From positions 138,628 through 202,627 of the forward strand of contig JBAYKX010000001.1 of assembly GCA_041664345.1 (NCBI GenBank): a stretch of DNA of 64,000 bases, written 5' to 3'. The translations under genes were made by a program, and so were the position numbers. The notes beneath the pieces are model-generated. The model was given only the letters and a program-made list of their open reading frames with translations. It did not search any database and was not told where the DNA came from. The stretch comes from Salinivirgaceae bacterium (GTDB taxonomy: Bacteria > Bacteroidota > Bacteroidia > Bacteroidales > SZUA-534). Of this stretch, positions 21,014-34,837 are shown piece after piece. Within the stretch, counting starts at the first letter, position 1. Every line of letters begins with the position of its first letter.

Positions 21014-21349
21014 TTACAATTCATTGTATTTTTTATTGGAATTAAAGCTTTTTTCCACCGGGTATTTTATCGCATTCTTGTCCACTTTTTTATTAATAGC
21101 ATCCAGCAAATCTATGCCAAAATGTTCTGAAATGTATATTAGGTAAATAGCAATATCGGCTAATTCATCCTTCATCTCTTCCCGGTTTATCTTCTCTTGC
21201 TGTTCCTTATCCTTCCAAAGAAAAAGTTCTTGCAATTCAGCTGCTTCAATGTTTAGTGCTAATAGCAAATCTTTAATCTGGTGGAATTGCTTCCAGTTTC
21301 TTTCTTCGCGGAATGCGATTACTTTATCGTGAATTTCGGTGTAGTTCAT
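21014..21349 (-). CDS. MazG-like nucleotide pyrophosphohydrolase (dCTP-pyrophosphatase-like)
   Basis: 111 aa with NWKQFH, NIEAAELQELF and DELADIAIYLIYI, the EExxE/D metal-binding helices of the all-alpha NTP-PPase fold. Confidence 0.75.
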   Translation of the reverse strand: MNYTEIHDKVIAFREERNWKQFHQIKDLLLALNIEAAELQELFLWKDKEQQEKINREEMKDELADIAIYLIYISEHFGIDLLDAINKKVDKNAIKYPVEKSFNSNKKYNEL

Positions 21350-25286: not shown

Positions 25287-25628
25287 ATGATTAATCAAAC
25301 ACTTAGTATTCATGCAGCCCAACAGAAAGTGGATGAATGGATAAAAACCATCGGGGTGCGCTATTTTAGTGAATTAACCAATATGACTATACTAACCGAA
25401 GAAGTGGGTGAATTGGCGCGTATTATGGCCCGCACTTATGGCGACCAATCGTTTAAAGAGTCGGATTTGAAGGGCAACCTTGCCGATGAAATGGCTGATG
25501 TATTATGGGTTCTAATATGTTTGGCAAATCAAACCGGGGTGAATTTAACCGACGCTTTTTTAAAAAACATAGAGAAGAAAACCCTCCGCGATGGAGAAAG
25601 ACACCGGAATAATATCAAACTTCAATAA
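25287..25628 (+). CDS. MazG-type nucleotide pyrophosphohydrolase domain protein
   Basis: 113 aa with LTEEVGELARI and LADEMADVLWVLICLAN, the EExxE plus ExxD helices. Confidence 0.75.
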   Translation: MINQTLSIHAAQQKVDEWIKTIGVRYFSELTNMTILTEEVGELARIMARTYGDQSFKESDLKGNLADEMADVLWVLICLANQTGVNLTDAFLKNIEKKTLRDGERHRNNIKLQ

Positions 25629-25767: not shown

Positions 25768-26547
25768 TTAATAATTTCCTTGAGCCTTTGCTCCTGTTAT
25801 AACGGCAACACTTGAGCCGCAGCCAATTCTGCTGGCACCAGCTTGTATCAAAGCAATTGCTTGATTGTATTCTTTAATCCCTCCGCTCGCTTTAACTCCT
25901 ATTTTTGGCCCTACAATACGCCGCATTAGCATAATATCGGCAACTGTTGCTCCGCCACCGCTAAATCCTGTGCTGGTTTTCACAAAGTCGGCTTCTGCTT
26001 TTTTTGCAATCTCACAGGCAATAACTTTCTCATCATCGGTCAACAGTACCGTTTCAATTATCACCTTTAAAATCGTGTTTTTCCTACAAACCCGTTTTAT
26101 TGCCCTGATATCCTCTTCAACTAATTTGTAATCCTTCGATTTTAGCGAACCTACATTAATTACCATATCCAATTCATTCGCCCCGGCTTCGATGGCATTA
26201 CTTGCTTCAAATGCCTTACTGCGGCTATCCATAGCACCTAAAGGAAACCCAATCACGGCACAAATTTTTATTCCTGAACCCCGTAGTTTTTTTGTGACAT
26301 AAGGAACCCAGCTTGAATTTACACAAACCGAATAAAATTTGTATTGCACTGCTTCATCGCAAAGTTTGTCGAATTGAGCTTTTGTAGCATCGGGCTTTAA
26401 TAAGGTGTGGTCAATGAACCCTGCCAATTCTGACTGTGAAATAAACGGTCCGGAATGAGAATTCGATTCCTGTTGAACCTTCTTTATCCCTTCCAACCGG
26501 GACATTACCTCTTGAGTAATTTTGTCAACTAATTCTTTATGATCCAT
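25768..26547 (-). CDS. deoC: Deoxyribose-phosphate aldolase (DERA) with an N-terminal ~40-aa extension
   Basis: The core aligns well with what I recall of Bacillus-type DeoC: IDHTLLKPDAT, VCVN, VIGFPLG, DMVIN, FVKTSTGF (Schiff-base Lys) and VKASGGI. Residues 1-~41 are additional. Confidence 0.9.
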   Translation of the reverse strand: MDHKELVDKITQEVMSRLEGIKKVQQESNSHSGPFISQSELAGFIDHTLLKPDATKAQFDKLCDEAVQYKFYSVCVNSSWVPYVTKKLRGSGIKICAVIGFPLGAMDSRSKAFEASNAIEAGANELDMVINVGSLKSKDYKLVEEDIRAIKRVCRKNTILKVIIETVLLTDDEKVIACEIAKKAEADFVKTSTGFSGGGATVADIMLMRRIVGPKIGVKASGGIKEYNQAIALIQAGASRIGCGSSVAVITGAKAQGNY

Positions 26548-26554
26548 GTTTTTG

Positions 26555-27031
26555 TTACAATTTTTCTATTGACATCATTTTATTAATCCTTGGCCAATGC
26601 CTTCCACCTTCAAACCTTGTTTTAAGCCACAATTTCGACATAGAACAAAGTTCATCCATAGTATGTTGTGCAGTCCCCAAAGTTAACACATTGGCACAAT
26701 TATGTTCACGGCTGTTCAAAATAGTTTTTGGGCTCCAGCATAATGCCGCCCTGATACCATTTACTTTATTACAAACCATGCAAGAGCCAATTCCGGCAGC
26801 ATCGAGCATAATCCCACGCTCACACTCGCCGGTAACCACTTTACGTGCAACCGCCAATGCAAAATCGGGATAATCAACCTTTATTGTGCTGTTATTGGTT
26901 CCTACATCAATCACTTTATAACCAATCAACTGAAGATAGGACTTTATGGTTTCTTTTGCCTCGTAAGAGCCATGATCAGCGCCAATGGCTACTCTCCGGA
27001 CCTGATCATGCGTGTTAGCATTTTCGCTCAT
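26555..27031 (-). CDS. RpiB/LacA/LacB-family sugar-phosphate isomerase-like protein
   Basis: 158 aa with VAIGADHGS, DYPDFA, GIRAALC, REHNCANVL and GGRH. The motif at the expected catalytic Cys reads GIMLDAAGIG. Confidence 0.8.
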   Translation of the reverse strand: MSENANTHDQVRRVAIGADHGSYEAKETIKSYLQLIGYKVIDVGTNNSTIKVDYPDFALAVARKVVTGECERGIMLDAAGIGSCMVCNKVNGIRAALCWSPKTILNSREHNCANVLTLGTAQHTMDELCSMSKLWLKTRFEGGRHWPRINKMMSIEKL

Positions 27032-27056: not shown

Positions 27057-27326
27057 TCAACCAGCAATCTGATCCACAATTCCTACAATCACGGTTTTAA
27101 CAGTTAATGAGTCTGGTTCATTTAATATGGTGCGGGCTGAGTTCCCTTCATCTAAAACCAAAACAATATCTCCAACTCCTGCTTGCACTGCATCAATCGC
27201 CAACAAAGATTTTCCAATCAGGTTCCCATTGGTATCGATAGGTTGTACTATCAAAATCTTTTTCGATTCATAGCCTTTGGCTTTAATGGTGGAAACTACA
27301 TTTCCTATAATTTTCGCTAATATCAT
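27057..27326 (-). CDS. BMC-P pentameric vertex protein (EutN/CcmL family), copy 4
   Basis: MILAKIIGNVVSTIKA..KILIVQP..AIDAVQAGVGDIVLV..GNSAR..VIVGIVD. The ATGA start overlaps the upstream stop. Confidence 0.88.
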   Translation of the reverse strand: MILAKIIGNVVSTIKAKGYESKKILIVQPIDTNGNLIGKSLLAIDAVQAGVGDIVLVLDEGNSARTILNEPDSLTVKTVIVGIVDQIAG

Positions 27327-27598
27327 TTTCCCTCCTCAACCAGCATTTCATCAATAATTCCCATTATGGCAGTATCGCAGGGGTTCATTATAGTTTCAAT
27401 AACACGGCTCGCTTCGCGGCTTGTTTCATAATATACAAATTCACCGATGCCGCATTGTATGGTATCTGCCACAACAATAGGATCGCCCACATTTGCCATT
27501 TTTTCATCCAACGGTTGCAGCAAGAGAAGTTTTACCCCTACCAACGATTCCACTTTTACGGTACTAACAACCCTCCCCAAAACTTTGCCAAATTTCAT
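27323..27598 (-). CDS. BMC-P pentameric vertex protein (EutN/CcmL family), copy 3
   Basis: MKFGKVLGRVVSTVKV..KLLLLQP..VADTIQCGIGEFV..AIMGIIDE. I prefer the ATG at 27598 because the track start at 27640 would overlap the AldDH 3' end. Confidence 0.85.
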   Translation of the reverse strand: MKFGKVLGRVVSTVKVESLVGVKLLLLQPLDEKMANVGDPIVVADTIQCGIGEFVYYETSREASRVIETIMNPCDTAIMGIIDEMLVEEGK

Positions 27599-27606
27599 GG
27601 TTGCAA

Positions 27607-29022
27607 TTATATAATTCTGAAATAATCGACCAACGTACAACGCCGTTCCCTACTGAAAGTGCGGGCACGGGTAACTCCTTCGCCTGTTGGGCTCGCAATG
27701 GTAAAAGATGCAAAACCCGCGCCACCAAAACCCAATCCGGCATAGCTGGGTCCGTTTTTAATAAAAATGGAGCAGTTCATCCTTTTGGCCATTTTACTCA
27801 ATTTAGCAATATTTAACGAATGCATAATGGCGGTATGCCGGAATCCATGTTCACAAGCTACCGCAAGATCGATGGCCGCATCCACATCCGATATGCGGAC
27901 AATGGGCATTACAGGCATGAGCTGCTCAGTCCAGACTAAAGGGTGTTCTCTTCCCACTTCGCAAATCAACAATCGTGTGGAAGCAGGAACCGTTATTCCA
28001 ATTTCTTGGGCAATAAAGTCAGCATTTTTCCCCACATATTTTTTGTTTGCAGCTCCTTCGTGTCCAGGTCGTCCAGCATCTGAAATTATCAGTTCCGTAA
28101 TCTTTTTTATTTGATCTCCGTTTAGTTCAAAGGCTCCGTTCTTCTTCATCTCCTCCTTTAATCTATCGGCCACTGATGCAACTACCAACACTTCTTTTTC
28201 GCAAATGCAAATTACATTGTTATCGAAACTTGCGCCATCAACTATGTCTTTACCGGCTTTTGCAATATCCGCTGTTTCATCAACAACCACCGGAGGATTC
28301 CCCGGTCCTGCTGCAATCACTTTTTTTCCGCTGTTCATGGCAACATTCACATCCGCCGGTCCGCCTGTTACTACAAGAATAGCAATTTTCTTGTGAGCCA
28401 TCAATTCTTTTGCCGATTCAATGGTTGGTTCATCAATGCAAGTCAATAAGTTTTCAGGCCCACCAACTTCTATGATTGCTTCATTTAACAGTTTAACCAA
28501 AAAGCAGGAAACTTTTTTAGCAGAAGGATGCGGATTAAAAACAACCGCATTACCGGCAGCTATCATACCTATGGAATTGCTAATAATGGTAGCTGTTGGA
28601 TTCGTGCTGGGTGTTATGGAACCAATGACACCATAGGGTGCATTTTCGACCAAAGTGAACCCATGGTCGTCTGAAAAAGCTTCAGGAACAATATCTTCGG
28701 CCCCCGGTGTTTTATTAATAGCCAATTCATTTTTGAGCATTTTATCTTGCCAACGCCCCATTCCGGTTTCTTCACTGGCCATTTTTGATAAAAGTTCATT
28801 GTTTGTCAATGAAACTTTTCTCATGTTTGCAATAATCTCCTTGCGTGTTTCAAGGCTTAGCTGAACAAACTCCTTATAAGCTAAATCGGAAGCATTAACC
28901 GCACTATCTAAATTCGAAAATATTCCTGCTCTCCCGCTCCCGGTCTCTTTTACAGGATTTAAATTCATGCCATTGAGGACCTCTTCAACTAGCTGGCGTA
29001 TATTTTGTTCTAAATTATCCAA
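27607..29022 (-). CDS. Acylating (CoA-dependent) aldehyde dehydrogenase, EutE/PduP-like
   Basis: 471 aa. The catalytic-Cys context is FDNNVICICEKEVLVV, with GGPA..V and GPGNPP also present. The N-terminus is an amphipathic helix, LEQNIRQLVEEVLNGM. Confidence 0.9.
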   Translation of the reverse strand: MDNLEQNIRQLVEEVLNGMNLNPVKETGSGRAGIFSNLDSAVNASDLAYKEFVQLSLETRKEIIANMRKVSLTNNELLSKMASEETGMGRWQDKMLKNELAINKTPGAEDIVPEAFSDDHGFTLVENAPYGVIGSITPSTNPTATIISNSIGMIAAGNAVVFNPHPSAKKVSCFLVKLLNEAIIEVGGPENLLTCIDEPTIESAKELMAHKKIAILVVTGGPADVNVAMNSGKKVIAAGPGNPPVVVDETADIAKAGKDIVDGASFDNNVICICEKEVLVVASVADRLKEEMKKNGAFELNGDQIKKITELIISDAGRPGHEGAANKKYVGKNADFIAQEIGITVPASTRLLICEVGREHPLVWTEQLMPVMPIVRISDVDAAIDLAVACEHGFRHTAIMHSLNIAKLSKMAKRMNCSIFIKNGPSYAGLGFGGAGFASFTIASPTGEGVTRARTFSRERRCTLVDYFRII

Positions 29023-29037: not shown

Positions 29038-29589
29038 TTACATAAAAAATGGTTTTGTTTCTTTATGAGGCTGTGGAATAATGGTATCCATGCACCACAA
29101 ATTTTTTTCTTTGGCTACAGCAGTCCCTGCTTCCATGGCTGTTTCAATCGCATCGAGGCTTCCTATCATCTTTACATACGATTTTCCACCAAATCCCACG
29201 GCAAGCCTGATTTCAATAATAGTAACCCCACCCCTTTTTGCTGCTTTATCGGCCGCCTCAATACTTGAAACCACTGACAACGTTTCTGTTATTCCAATGG
29301 AATCCCAAATATCTGTTTTAATAATTTTACCAATGGCTGGAACTACAGAAGGATGTATCATGGGAAGGAATAAGGAGTCAACAATCCGGTCTTTTCCAAT
29401 TTCAAATCCTTTGTGGAATGAATACTCCACCGATGCCACATCACCAGTAAAAACAATTAGATATTTTCCGGGACATATAGTTTTGGCTTCAATAATTTCA
29501 ATGGGTGCCAATTTTACCATTTCGTCGAGGGCTTTCATCCCCAGTGCCATGCTACTAAACTCCAATACACCTAAAACGGTCAATTCCAT
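29038..29589 (-). CDS. PduT-like tandem-domain BMC-T shell protein
   Basis: 183 aa with two BMC domains: LGVLEFSSMALGMKALDEMVK.. and IGITETLSVVSSIEAADKAAK... KTICPGKYLIVFTGDV matches the PduT Fe-S Cys context. Confidence 0.85.
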   Translation of the reverse strand: MELTVLGVLEFSSMALGMKALDEMVKLAPIEIIEAKTICPGKYLIVFTGDVASVEYSFHKGFEIGKDRIVDSLFLPMIHPSVVPAIGKIIKTDIWDSIGITETLSVVSSIEAADKAAKRGGVTIIEIRLAVGFGGKSYVKMIGSLDAIETAMEAGTAVAKEKNLWCMDTIIPQPHKETKPFFM

Positions 29590-29596
29590 GTCGTGG

Positions 29597-29884
29597 TTAT
29601 TTCTTGTACACTATGGTCTCATTATCATCTATCAGGTCAATAATGCCCACAATTAAAGCATCAACTGGCTTATTTACAGTACCGGGAGTTTCTCTGGCCG
29701 AAGTGCTTTCAGAAACAAAAACCAGTTCATCGTAACCCGCACCAACAATATCGAGAGCTACTAAATAGTCGCCTTTTTTATCGCCACGTTGATTTGTCTT
29801 TTCCACCAACAAATACCTAGCACCTTGAATGTTTATGCTATTTGAGCTACTAACCACTGTTCCAACAACTCTACCTATCACCAT
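29597..29884 (-). CDS. BMC-P pentameric vertex protein (EutN/CcmL family), copy 2
   Basis: MVIGRVVGTVVSS..YLLVEK..ALDIVGAGYDELVFV..STSAR..LIVGIIDLI. Confidence 0.88.
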   Translation of the reverse strand: MVIGRVVGTVVSSSNSINIQGARYLLVEKTNQRGDKKGDYLVALDIVGAGYDELVFVSESTSARETPGTVNKPVDALIVGIIDLIDDNETIVYKK

Positions 29885-29897
29885 ACATGTTCAACTA

Positions 29898-30191
29898 TTA
29901 GTTCTTTTGGTATGTAAAACTGCCATCTTTTTCAATAAAATCAACAATTGCAATCACAGCCGAATCGGTAGGTTTTCCATCGGTTGCTTCGGTAAACCGC
30001 GCACTGCTGCCCGATACATAAAACACAATTTCCCCAACACCCGCTCCAACACTGTCCATAGAAACAACAAAATCGTTTTTCCCTTGTAAGGTTACCGGAT
30101 CTATTTTCTCTAGCAGAAGGAGTTTGATTCCCTCAATTTTTTGTGCTTTTTGGCTCGAAACAACGGTACCAACAACTCTTGCTAAAATCAT
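29898..30191 (-). CDS. BMC-P pentameric vertex protein (EutN/CcmL family), copy 1
   Basis: MILARVVGTVVSSQKA..KLLLLEK..SMDSVGAGVGEIVFY..GSSAR..AVIAIVDFI. Confidence 0.88.
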   Translation of the reverse strand: MILARVVGTVVSSQKAQKIEGIKLLLLEKIDPVTLQGKNDFVVSMDSVGAGVGEIVFYVSGSSARFTEATDGKPTDSAVIAIVDFIEKDGSFTYQKN

Positions 30192-30311: not shown

Positions 30312-30602
30312 CTACTTCCTACCTAAAGGCAAAGCACTATCCACATTGTTATGCGGACGTGGGATTACATGCGATGATACAATTTCGCCCACTCTTTCAG
30401 CGGCTTTAATACCGGCATCAACAGCAGCTCTTACGGAGGCCACATCACCCCGAACAATAGCCGTTACATAACCACCGCCAATTTTTTCATAACCCACCAA
30501 TTCTACTTTTGCGGCTTTAAGCATTGCATCCGAAGCTTCTACCAAAGCGGTAAAACCTCTTGTCTCAATCATTCCTAAAGCATCCGTTTTTATTTCTGAC
30601 AT
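30312..30602 (-). CDS. BMC-H hexameric shell protein (Pfam00936 type), paralog 2
   Basis: [74 protein letters not shown]. Confidence 0.93.
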
Positions 30603-30636: not shown

Positions 30637-31257
30637 TTAATATTCTTCTCTTCCGGTAATTTCAGCCAAGCGTTTTTCAACCGTCTTTTTACATTCTAAA
30701 ACTTCTGCTTCGGAACCTCCAATATAAACCCTGCCAAATTTACCGAAACCAATTACCTCAATAATGTTAATGCGCGCCGATTTTTCGGCTTCGTTTGCCG
30801 CATAATAAGCATATCCAGCAGGCTCCACTTCAAGAATGAATAAGGTGTCGCCCCGTAAAAGCATCGATCCATGACGAGTCCTGTTTATCAATTGAGCATG
30901 ATGATCCTCAATGTTTTTGATTAATTGGCTTGTCAAAATCCTGGGTTTAATTCTTTGATTCTCCGTTTGATCAATTGCTTTTAACACAGCTTCTCCGGCC
31001 ATGCGGGTGTCGCCTTGGCTGCTTGAATGTACTTCGAGCATTCCATAAGCCCTTTCTACTATTTGCATTCCAGGAGTAACGTTAGTAGCTTTTAAGGCCA
31101 CATCGGTCAATGTATTAATTTCAATACCCGGCGCAATCTCAATAATGCAACATGTTTGACCCCCAACAGGTAAATATCCACGGGAAACCGTTGATAAATA
31201 GGAGGCCATTTGCAACTGCAATGAATCTAAAAAAATATAAGTTCTTAAATCTACCAT
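30637..31257 (-). CDS. Tandem-domain BMC-T shell protein of the CcmP/CsoS1D-like (double-stacking) class
   Basis: 206 aa. LRTYIFLDSLQLQMASYLSTVSRGYLPVGGQ..IEIAPGIEINTLTDVALKAT..VERAYGMLEVHS.. then LFILEVEPAGYAYYAANEAEKSA..FGRVYIGGSEAEV. It closely resembles my recollection of the Haliangium BMC-T2/T3 sequences. Confidence 0.7.
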   Translation of the reverse strand: MVDLRTYIFLDSLQLQMASYLSTVSRGYLPVGGQTCCIIEIAPGIEINTLTDVALKATNVTPGMQIVERAYGMLEVHSSSQGDTRMAGEAVLKAIDQTENQRIKPRILTSQLIKNIEDHHAQLINRTRHGSMLLRGDTLFILEVEPAGYAYYAANEAEKSARINIIEVIGFGKFGRVYIGGSEAEVLECKKTVEKRLAEITGREEY

Positions 31258-31259
31258 GA

Positions 31260-31568
31260 CTATTTTCCTTTCTTAGTTATTTTCGCACCTAATGGCAGGG
31301 CGCTATCAACATTTTCATGAGGCCTTGGGATTACATGAGTAGATACTATTTCACCCACTTTTTCACCCGCCTTAACACCAGCATCAACAGCAGCTCGCAC
31401 GGAGGCTACATCGCCACGCACAATGGCTGTAACATAGCCGCCACCAATCTTTTCATACCCAATTAGTTCAACTCTAGATGCTTTTACCATAGCATCGGCA
31501 GCTTCAACCATAGCTACAAAACCCCGGGTTTCTATCATTCCCAAAGCTTTCATTTCAATATCTTCCAT
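31260..31568 (-). CDS. BMC-H hexameric shell protein, paralog 1 (first gene of the operon)
   Basis: [76 protein letters not shown]. The start may be the ATG at 31553. It is highly similar to paralog 2, by eye roughly four-fifths or more of protein positions. Confidence 0.93.
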
Positions 31569-32316: not shown

Positions 32317-33608
32317 ATGATTTTTACAGAAGAACTGAAATGGCGGGGAATGTTGCACGATGTGATGCCCGGAACCGATGAGCAATTGGCTAAGGAAATG
32401 ACATTGGCTTATGTAGGATTTGATCCAACGGCTGATTCGTTGCATATTGGAAGTCTTGCTCCAATCATTTTATTGAAAAGGTTTCAATTAGCTGGCCATA
32501 AACCCATTGCTTTGGTGGGCGGAGCTACCGGTATGATTGGCGACCCATCGGGAAAATCGCAGGAACGGAACCTCCTGAATGAAGAAACGCTGCAAAAAAA
32601 TCTGGATGGTATAAAAAACCAATTGAGTAAGTTCATCGATTTTGAATCGGATGCTCCCAATAAAGCCTTGATGGTGAATAATTACGACTGGATGAAGGAA
32701 CAAACCTTTCTATCGTTTATCCGCGATATTGGCAAGCATATTACCGTAAATTATATGATGGCCAAAGATTCGGTTAAAAAACGGTTGAGTTCCGATTCCA
32801 ACAGCGGCATGTCGTTTACTGAATTTACTTACCAGTTGGTGCAAGGATACGATTTTTACTGGCTTTACGCGAATATGGGCTGCAAACTCCAAATGGGCGG
32901 CAGCGACCAATGGGGAAACATTACCACGGGAACCGAACTTATCCGCCGTAAAACAGGTGGTGAGGCGTTTGCCTTAACCATTCCGCTCATTACCAAATCG
33001 GATGGCGGAAAATTCGGAAAAACCGAATCGGGCAATGTTTGGCTCGACCCCGATAAAACATCACCGTACAGTTTTTATCAGTTTTGGCTCAACACCAGCG
33101 ACGAAGACGCTGAAAAATTCATTAAAATTTTCACCTTTCTGATAAACCGACTATTGATAGCATGATTGCCAAACACCGTGAAGCACCGCATTTGCGTGAA
33201 TTGCAGCGCACACTGGCACATGAAGTAACCGTAATGGTTCATTCACAAGCCGATTACGATTCTGCTGTGGAAGCTTCGGAAATCCTTTTTGGGAAAGCTA
33301 CCAGCGAAGCCCTTGCAAAAATTGACGAGCGGACTTTTTTAGCGGTTTTCGAAGGAGTTCCGACGTTCGACATCAATAAAAGCGATCTGACAAACGGTGT
33401 TTCCATTGTTGACCTGCTGACCGATTTAGCACCCGTTTTCCCTTCGAAAGGGGAACTGCGCCGGCTATTGAGCGGTGGAGGGGTCAGCATCAATAAAGAT
33501 AAAATTGAAAGTGCCGACTTGAAAGTTACCTCCGAAATGTTGATTAACGGCAAATACCTGCTCATTCAAAAAGGTAAAAAGAATTACTTTTTGATAACGG
33601 CAAAATAG
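32317..33608 (+). pseudogene. tyrS: Tyrosine--tRNA ligase, reading frame broken by an apparent 1-nt deletion near 33141 (possibly a sequencing error)
   Basis: HIGS (HIGH) and KFGKT (KMSKS) motifs lie in ORF 32317-33165. The C-terminal S4-like domain is in ORF 33162-33608. Frame 0 is open from 33126 and reads [22 protein letters not shown] directly after ..KIFTFL once one base is restored (ctgGataaa). Confidence 0.85.
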
Positions 33609-34144: not shown

Positions 34145-34204
34145 TAAAACAGATTTTAAGTATTCCAATCCACACCACCCCAGATGTGGTTTTTTTTTAC
34201 CAAT

Positions 34205-34837
34205 ATGGCATCAACTTATTATATCGATACTTTTATAAACTCTTTGAAGGAGAAGTTTCCGAAGGAACATTCCATTCCATTGGCCCATCAATTAATGATG
34301 CCACAAGGCCGCATAATGGTTCCCGACCATTCAAATCCACCACTTAAAAGCGCCGTGTTGCTGTTATTGTTCCCAAAACAGGGCCAATTGTATTTTCCCA
34401 TCATCCGCCGCCCGGTTTATGATGGAATGCACAGCGGCCAAATGGCGCTGCCCGGCGGAAAGCAAGAAGAAATAGATGTAACACTGGAACAAACTGCTGT
34501 GCGCGAGGCTTGCGAAGAAATTGGCATTTGTAGCTCCGATATCCGTATATTAGGTCATTTAACCGAGCTTTACATAGCGGTTACCAATATTCATGTGCTT
34601 CCGGTAGTTGCCTTAGCAATCCAGGAACCTTCGTTTGTTTTAGATGCCCGTGAAGTAGATGAATTGTTTAGTATTCCCCTAACCGATTTGCTAAACCCGG
34701 AACTGAAAAAAAAGGAACTATGGGACTTGCGCGGGCAACAAGTGGAGGTGCCTTTTTACCTTTTGGCCAACCATAAAGTTTGGGGTGCCACTGCCATGAT
34801 TCTGAGTGAGTTTGAAAGTATTGCAAAAGGTTTATAG
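34205..34837 (+). CDS. NUDIX hydrolase (CoA pyrophosphatase-like)
   Basis: Nudix box GGKQEEIDVTLEQTAVREACEEIGI, with LLLLFP..RRP..HSGQMALPGG upstream. I prefer the ATG at 34205 (MASTYY..). Confidence 0.8.
   Translation: MASTYYIDTFINSLKEKFPKEHSIPLAHQLMMPQGRIMVPDHSNPPLKSAVLLLLFPKQGQLYFPIIRRPVYDGMHSGQMALPGGKQEEIDVTLEQTAVREACEEIGICSSDIRILGHLTELYIAVTNIHVLPVVALAIQEPSFVLDAREVDELFSIPLTDLLNPELKKKELWDLRGQQVEVPFYLLANHKVWGATAMILSEFESIAKGL

Follow-up and report, generated by a model that had tools for sequence, protein, structure and literature searches.

What does the extra N-terminal segment of a deoxyribose-phosphate aldolase (DERA) do when the gene closes an operon of bacterial microcompartment (BMC) shell genes? 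The question is raised by a 64,000-nt stretch of the genome of a Salinivirgaceae bacterium (assembly GCA_041664345.1, contig JBAYKX010000001.1, positions 138,628 to 202,627), the whole of which is called the window below. The DERA gene (25768-26547, minus strand) is the last of 11 co-directional, tightly packed genes, eight of which are shell genes, and encodes a 259-residue product that begins MDHKELVDKITQEVMSRLEGIKKVQQESNSHSGPFISQSE and continues LAGFIDHTLLKPDAT. The original prediction, made from the DNA alone, held that the first 41 codons (26425-26547) encode an extension of ~40 residues that looks like an encapsulation peptide. Our analysis supports this proposal: residues 1 to ~39 very probably form an N-terminal encapsulation peptide that would recruit DERA into the lumen of a microcompartment of the sugar-phosphate-utilisation (SPU) type.

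The open reading frame (ORF) and the catalytic core delimit the extension. The ATG at 26547, 7 nt past the rpiB stop, is the first possible start of the frame, with an in-frame stop 7 codons 5' of it and no ATG, GTG or TTG in between. The DeoC domain of Pfam (PF01791) matches residues 45-230 (E = 9e-17), and two solved DERAs from the Protein Data Bank (PDB), 8qps and 6d33, match residues 40-259 (E = 1e-78), with residue 40 pairing with residue 4 of 6d33 (224 aa) and residue 11 of 8qps (230 aa). Because the solved enzymes align only from residue 40, the extension beyond canonical short DERAs amounts to ~36-39 residues; the predicted length was right, and the 55 N-terminal residues quoted with it were exact. 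The motifs ELDMV (D127), FVKTSTGF (K190) and GVKASGG (K219) are identical to the aligned motifs of solved DERAs, and the three named residues are invariant in 20 homologues. The TIM barrel carries the putative Schiff-base lysine and partner aspartate and lysine of a class I deoxyribose-phosphate aldolase (EC 4.1.2.4). We take D127, K190 and K219 to correspond to D102, K167 and K201 of E. coli DERA. The gene is the only DeoC-family gene in the whole genome (5.6 Mb, 99.99% complete), and its translation has no cysteine before C63.

The extension consists of a conserved helix followed by a variable polar linker. Hundreds of homologues of 256-274 residues with ~70% identity span the whole query; they are metagenomic, and the named ones are from Bacteroidota. 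In an alignment of 20 homologues at ~70% identity, 10 of the first 18 positions (M1, E5, L6, D8, I10, E13, V14, M15, R17 and L18) were conserved at 90% or above. Residues 19-39 held no conserved column, the linker differed in length by ~9 residues among homologues, and conservation picked up again at E40-L41-A42. AlphaFold2, run with a homologue alignment, gave a mean predicted local distance difference test score (pLDDT) of 87 for the whole protein and placed a helix at residues 3-24 (pLDDT 65-73), a segment with pLDDT <50 at 22-32, coil up to residue 37 and the TIM barrel from residue 38. In the same model, DSSP assigned no β-strands to the extension, only coil at residues 25-37. On a helical wheel, L6, V7, I10, V14, M15 and L18, together with T11 and I21, form a hydrophobic face, and D8, K9, Q12, E13, S16 and E19 lie opposite. 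The spacing of L6, I10, V14 and L18 presumably recalls that of the PduP tag. The best 15-residue window of the helix has a hydrophobic moment of 0.48, which ranks among the top 12 of the 244 windows of DERA (top 5%). These results bear out the prediction of an amphipathic helix followed by a polar linker, with an amphipathicity that is weighed below.

Encapsulation peptides are defined by a predicted amphipathic helix of 15-20 residues and a poorly conserved linker, present only on encapsulated homologues (Kinney 2012; Aussignargues 2015, PMC4594438). All the computable marks of this definition were found for the DERA extension, namely a terminal position beside shell genes, an amphipathic helix, a hydrophilic linker of variable length and absence from unlinked homologues, to which a metagenome-assembled genome (MAG) of Saganbacteria is a possible exception. 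At the level of sequence, the encapsulation-peptide reading is thereby supported on every count.

To examine how the extension and the shell are distributed, 151 genomes of the same order were searched with the full DERA protein and the BMC-P family. Of these genomes, 133 gave DERA-like matches. The test of association rests on this survey, as a search for related loci in genome contigs yielded only 10. A match from query residue 1-2 without a stop was found in only six, the window's own genome and G063, G068, G111, G121 and G133, and BMC-P genes were found in exactly these six, where they share a contig with the DERA gene at a distance of 0.3-5 kb. In some 125 other DERAs, the match does not begin before about residue 35-45. 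The association of extension and shell has a Fisher p of 1.5e-10, a naive value given that the six genomes form one clade. The proposed specificity of the extension for BMC-linked copies is thus upheld within the order, where the non-BMC DERAs lack the helix; the possible exception in Saganbacteria is a distant DERA. When residues 1-40 by themselves served as query in a word-based search, nothing but the query and one weak DERA match came back, a result that is uninformative on other cargo families.

Two close orthologues without a shell, G049 and G129 (66-68% identity), show what became of the helix when the shell was absent. No BMC-H or BMC-P domain was found in the G049 genome (98% complete), and its DERA gene (L002:8966-9682) sits among housekeeping genes. 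The G049 protein starts MDHNEAGSGQQNPEMTPQELARYIDHT: the first five residues (MDHNE) and the tail of the linker are kept, and the helix is cleanly gone in frame. A hidden, frameshifted helix upstream of this gene was searched for in three frames and was not found. In G129 (99% complete), all that is left of BMC sequence is a 32-position BMC-H fragment, ~170 nt upstream of the DERA ORF. It lies in a 64-codon ORF (L003:808-1169) whose first 36 residues are a BMC-H N-terminus, the remains of a deleted microcompartment operon. The G129 DNA before the catalytic core reads stop, NELIDKITQEVISRTKNDMSEKNFVTDNSNKTK, stop, STNMTKQELAKYFDHT (in short form, stop-NELIDKITQEVISRT...TK-stop-STNM), a relic of the helix that lacks a start codon and contains an in-frame stop; the DERA ORF begins anew at the position equivalent to residue 36, as an intact, shortened gene. 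In a maximum-likelihood tree built on the catalytic core only, G049 and G129 are sisters (99/97), nested in the tagged clade (97/97) next to G121. Because both nest inside the tagged clade, the absence of the helix is secondary. Only the two ways in which the helix was destroyed are independent, and the enzyme is retained in both. Among our comparative data, these losses are the strongest evidence supporting a helix that serves the compartment rather than the enzyme.

The aldehyde dehydrogenase (AldDH) of the same operon carries a helix of a similar kind. Its N-terminal helix has a hydrophobic moment of 0.57-0.66 (shuffle p = 0.002), is more strongly amphipathic than the DERA helix, and is conserved ahead of a variable linker in six orthologues. 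By eye the two helices are alike (LVEEVLNGM in AldDH vs ITQEVMSRL in DERA). No conserved N-terminal helix and no terminal tag were found on RpiB in an alignment of six orthologues, the core beginning at residue 14. We propose that the tag combines an amphipathic helix (~18-22 residues) with a flexible polar linker (~15-20 residues), which would give it reach. The hydrophobic face of the helix may dock on shell proteins, coalesce with the AldDH helix into a cargo core, or both, and the shell would then enclose the DERA/AldDH core during assembly. Within the shell, DERA would cleave deoxyribose 5-phosphate to acetaldehyde, a co-encapsulated AldDH would turn this into acetyl-CoA, and untagged RpiB may enter by binding DERA. 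Since AldDH carries a similar helix, production and consumption of acetaldehyde are both proposed to take place inside the shell. Both the generating and the consuming step would then be built for the shell interior, which is the logic of a metabolosome and would fit the role proposed for SPU compartments in the salvage of deoxyribose from DNA debris.

Several other explanations of the extension were weighed. It might be an artefact of annotation, with the real start at M15 or at a TTG (L18 or L41) and residues 1-40 never made. An in-frame ATG and TTG codons are indeed available at these positions, and the NCBI record of the Salinivirgaceae orthologue (P0009, 247 aa) begins at M15. However, over codons 2-18 in eight loci, the proportion of synonymous change (pS) is 0.78 and that of nonsynonymous change (pN) 0.23, a pN/pS of 0.30, compared with 0.93 and 1.70 for the same bases in the other two frames. 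Amino acids 5' of M15 are therefore conserved against saturated synonymous change, and in this frame only. The ATG is the common start in all eight loci, with an in-frame stop at most 10 codons upstream in five of them, and M15 itself is replaced by L or I in several orthologues. A downstream start would also open an intergenic gap of ~120 nt, although the genes of the operon are otherwise tightly packed, and automated start calls routinely miss the extensions of SPU DERAs (PMC11585597). DERA residues 1-18 are translated and under purifying selection. The starts at M15, L18 and L41 were rejected on conservation, selection and operon packing, since codons 2-18 are selected in frame and the ATG is conserved; the start is the one originally assumed, and an artefact is so improbable that we set it aside. 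The P0009 record is itself a start-site mis-annotation of the type described by Dwyer et al. The DNA of this Salinivirgaceae MAG (JAEINW010000089, L011:10001-10786) encodes the full helix and holds the complete MDQEKLINKITEEVMSRL start, and the deposited protein starts within the helix.

Granted that it is made, the extension could serve DERA itself, for instance in oligomerisation, regulation or stability, and have nothing to do with the microcompartment; its co-occurrence with shell genes would then be a lineage effect. All tagged DERAs of the order fall in one clade, so the co-occurrence may be inherited, and a DERA of the Saganbacteria MAG L014 (L014:10001-10759, JACRPM010000002) has a similar extension of ~40 residues, MNQQELIQKISEEMDELGIK, with no detectable shell genes. 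This protein begins MNQQELIQKISEEMDELGIKQIKSPAKVKIERPGPINKPSDLAPYIEHT, has 50% identity and lies outside the tagged clade on the tree. No shell gene was found within 10 kb upstream of it, the contig ending 600 nt downstream, and no BMC-H or BMC-P domain was found in the 1.6-Mb record, a MAG whose completeness is not established. This DERA may represent cargo with its shell contig missing from the bin, a relic in decay or a genuine exception. Against an unrelated role, both shell-less members of the clade lost the helix by different mutations and kept the catalytic core intact, AldDH, an unrelated enzyme of the operon, bears an extension of the same helix-plus-linker design, and solved DERAs dimerise without such a helix. 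We consider an unrelated role very unlikely. A less remote alternative, and still an improbable one, is that the helix acts chiefly in cargo-cargo aggregation and nucleates a DERA-AldDH core, perhaps with RpiB, by helix-helix association, without binding the shell itself, and that another component contacts the shell. The likeness of the two helices by eye would fit this, as would the insolubility that its extension conferred on an SPU6 DERA and the statement that encapsulation peptides facilitate aggregation of core proteins (PMC11585597). The published encapsulation peptides of PduP, PduD and CcmN, however, have shell proteins as binding partners (PMC4594438), and Gu et al. 2024, as cited in PMC11585597, place bound peptides between shell tiles. 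Aggregation would in any case be a version of the encapsulation-peptide idea and not an alternative to it. Some of our observations weigh against an encapsulation peptide. Since the six tagged genomes are one clade, their association with the shell represents one gain plus losses and not six events, and the shell may have been lost only once, G049 and G129 being sister taxa. The Saganbacteria DERA described above counts here as well. The amphipathicity of the DERA helix is present but moderate, because a shuffle of residues 4-21 gives a p of only 0.09; R17 is located at the edge of the hydrophobic face, and the pLDDT of the helix is not high. Targeting of this protein, and of its clade, is a prediction. 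With these points taken into account, an encapsulation peptide remains the explanation in which we have high confidence.

The features of the operon are collected in Table 1.

Table 1. Features of the shell operon in the window, listed from its first gene to its last, with the basis of each assignment
Feature	Coordinates	Strand	Basis
BMC-H hexamer protein 1, first operon gene	31260..31568	-	PF00936, E = 8e-32
CcmP-like double-stacking BMC-T(dp)	30637..31257	-	PDB CcmP 5lsr, 4ht5, E = 7e-69, residues 2-204
BMC-H hexamer protein 2	30312..30602	-	PF00936, E = 3e-32
BMC-P paralogue 1	29898..30191	-	PF03319
BMC-P paralogue 2	29597..29884	-	PF03319
PduT-like tandem BMC-T(s), Cys39 in ICPGK context	29038..29589	-	PF00936 twice; PDB PduT 3n79, E = 1e-36
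AldDH with N-terminal encapsulation-peptide-like helix and variable linker	27607..29022	-	PF00171 residues 36-434; six orthologues
AldDH codons 1-21, amphipathic helix MDNLEQNIRQLVEEVLNGMNL	28960..29022	-	Hydrophobic moment, orthologue conservation
BMC-P paralogue 3	27323..27598	-	PF03319 residues 15-97 of longest ORF
BMC-P (pentamer) paralogue 4	27057..27326	-	PF03319; syntenic in 7 related loci
RpiB-type sugar-phosphate isomerase, no terminal extension	26555..27031	-	PF02502 residues 14-152
DERA codons 1-18, conserved helix core MDHKELVDKITQEVMSRL	26494..26547	-	Conservation, pN/pS, AlphaFold2, helical wheel
DERA codons 19-39, helix tail and polar linker of variable length EGIKKVQQESNSHSGPFISQS	26431..26493	-	Conservation, pLDDT
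DERA TIM-barrel core (residues 40-259) and stop codon	25768..26430	-	PF01791; 8qps, 6d33; invariant columns

The gene order is BMC-H, CcmP-like BMC-T, BMC-H, two BMC-P, PduT-like BMC-T, AldDH, two BMC-P, RpiB and DERA. A T(sp) label for the 206-residue shell protein at 30637..31257 was dropped after the PDB search identified it as a CcmP-like T(dp). The start of BMC-P paralogue 3 is most likely the ATG at 27598, since in all loci the blastp alignments with orthologues begin at residue 15 of the longest ORF. An enzyme set of pfam01791, pfam02502 and AldDH stands next to the shell genes, and this set defines the SPU microcompartment (PMC4207490, PMC8217296, PMC11585597). The published gene-content criteria (Axen 2014; Sutter 2021; Dwyer 2024) ask in addition for BMC-H, one or more BMC-T(s) and three or more BMC-P; the operon holds DeoC and RpiB, AldDH, two BMC-H, a PduT-like T(s), a CcmP-like T(dp) and four BMC-P. 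On predicted gene content, the operon is of the SPU type. The 11 genes had no match to families other than DeoC, RpiB, Aldedh and the two shell families, so the operon has no PduS-type enzyme and no phosphotransacylase (PTAC), and no alcohol dehydrogenase family match was found among them. No PduL-type phosphotransacylase was found anywhere in the genome, and Pta-type genes lie elsewhere in it. The PduT-like BMC-T with its Cys39 may bear on the recycling of CoA and NAD+ inside the shell.

The operon shows resemblances to more than one SPU subtype. PduS is present in all of SPU1-7 except SPU6, PTAC is found in SPU1, 4 and 7, SPU6 has a C-terminal AldDH tag, and a CcmP-like T(dp) occurs in SPU2 and 3 (Axen 2014; Sutter 2021; Dwyer 2024). 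In its enzyme set, lacking PduS and PTAC, the operon resembles SPU6; in its CcmP-like T(dp) and N-terminal AldDH tag it resembles SPU2 and SPU3. A broader proposal is that this Bacteroidota-centred SPU clade has a minimal organelle with three enzymes and no PduS or PTAC, in which only DERA and AldDH would carry short canonical tags of ~18 residues, an untagged RpiB-like protein would enter only by binding DERA, and the tag would be useless outside the organelle. The last part is suggested because, where the shell genes have disappeared, the tag has decayed through different mutations, as in G049 and G129. This proposal is tentative, and we lean slightly against it; if true, the clade would be a compact natural test-bed for the targeting rules of encapsulation peptides.

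The same gene order was found in seven other loci, namely five relatives within the order, the Salinivirgaceae MAG and a MAG labelled Spirochaetota. In G063 (L006:1407-4898), the first shell module (BMC-H, BMC-T(dp), BMC-H, BMC-P) is tandemly duplicated, giving five BMC-P in total. The MAG labelled Spirochaetota (CAWEAK010000020, L013:2783-8753) has the operon with 64-87% protein identity to the Bacteroidota genomes; its BMC-T(dp) is split in two ORFs, and one BMC-P is interrupted by a TAG. Horizontal transfer, mis-binning or assembly errors could account for this locus. Near the operon in the window lie two genes for MazG-family nucleotide pyrophosphohydrolases (25287-25628, plus strand; 21014-21349, minus strand) and one NUDIX gene (34184-34837, plus strand). 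A MazG-like neighbour was considered as a functional partner and was set aside as local synteny, as it adjoins DERA only in the two closest relatives (L011 and L003). A tyrosyl-tRNA synthetase gene (32317-33608, plus strand) is present as two overlapping ORFs of 282 aa (catalytic domain) and 148 aa (C-terminal domain), which suggests a frameshift or a sequencing error.

Putative N-terminal encapsulation peptides have been described on the DERAs of all SPU subtypes, as an N-terminal extension with an amphipathic helix that DERAs not linked to a BMC lack (Dwyer, Sutter and Kerfeld 2024, Commun Biol, PMC11585597). The closest described case is the SPU6 DERA of Chloroflexi bacterium GWB2_54_36 (PMC11585597), which became soluble upon deletion of its extension and forms a stable complex with its RPI. 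It shares with the present protein the enzyme family, the type of organelle, the N-terminal amphipathic helix and the tendency to be missed by start calls. The SPU6 extension, however, has ~70 residues, with a helix of 25-30 residues and two β-strands, whereas the present one has ~39 residues, forms a helix and coil only, and shows neither the strands nor the length of the SPU6 form. The RPI of SPU6 bears an encapsulation peptide too, joined by a linker of ~75 residues, in contrast to the untagged RpiB here, and the AldDH tag is C-terminal in SPU6 and N-terminal in this operon.

The tags of PduP, PduD, EutC and CcmN (PMC4594438) likewise consist of a helix of ~18 residues and a poorly conserved hydrophilic linker and occur only on microcompartment-linked homologues. 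They sit on different cargo enzymes and have no detectable sequence homology to the DERA tag; none would be expected, since what unites encapsulation peptides is a pattern rather than a sequence. Experiments have demonstrated targeting for PduP, PduD and CcmN, whereas for this DERA it is predicted. In the SPU-type system of Hodarchaeales (Asgard), DERA also carries a predicted encapsulation peptide, and GFP-tagged enzymes with such peptides, including Flav+DERA, were recruited to shells while deletion variants were not (preprint PMC12747264). That DERA is fused to a flavoprotein domain, and its peptide can sit between domains; the present DERA is unfused and carries its tag at a terminus. The pfam01791 aldolases associated with the HO type (Sutter et al. 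2021, PMC8217296) are also of the DeoC family with an N-terminal extension resembling an encapsulation peptide, but their genes lie outside the shell locus, and the DERA gene here is the last cistron of the shell operon. The encapsulation-peptide idea for SPU DERAs is thus already published, and our finding is correct and ordinary. To these known systems it adds a short, clean version of the tag, made of helix and linker only and conserved in hundreds of homologues, comparative evidence that the tag is discarded upon loss of the shell, and a concrete database protein whose start was called inside the helix. Tests of cargo targeting in SPU microcompartments could also make convenient use of this compact 11-gene operon.

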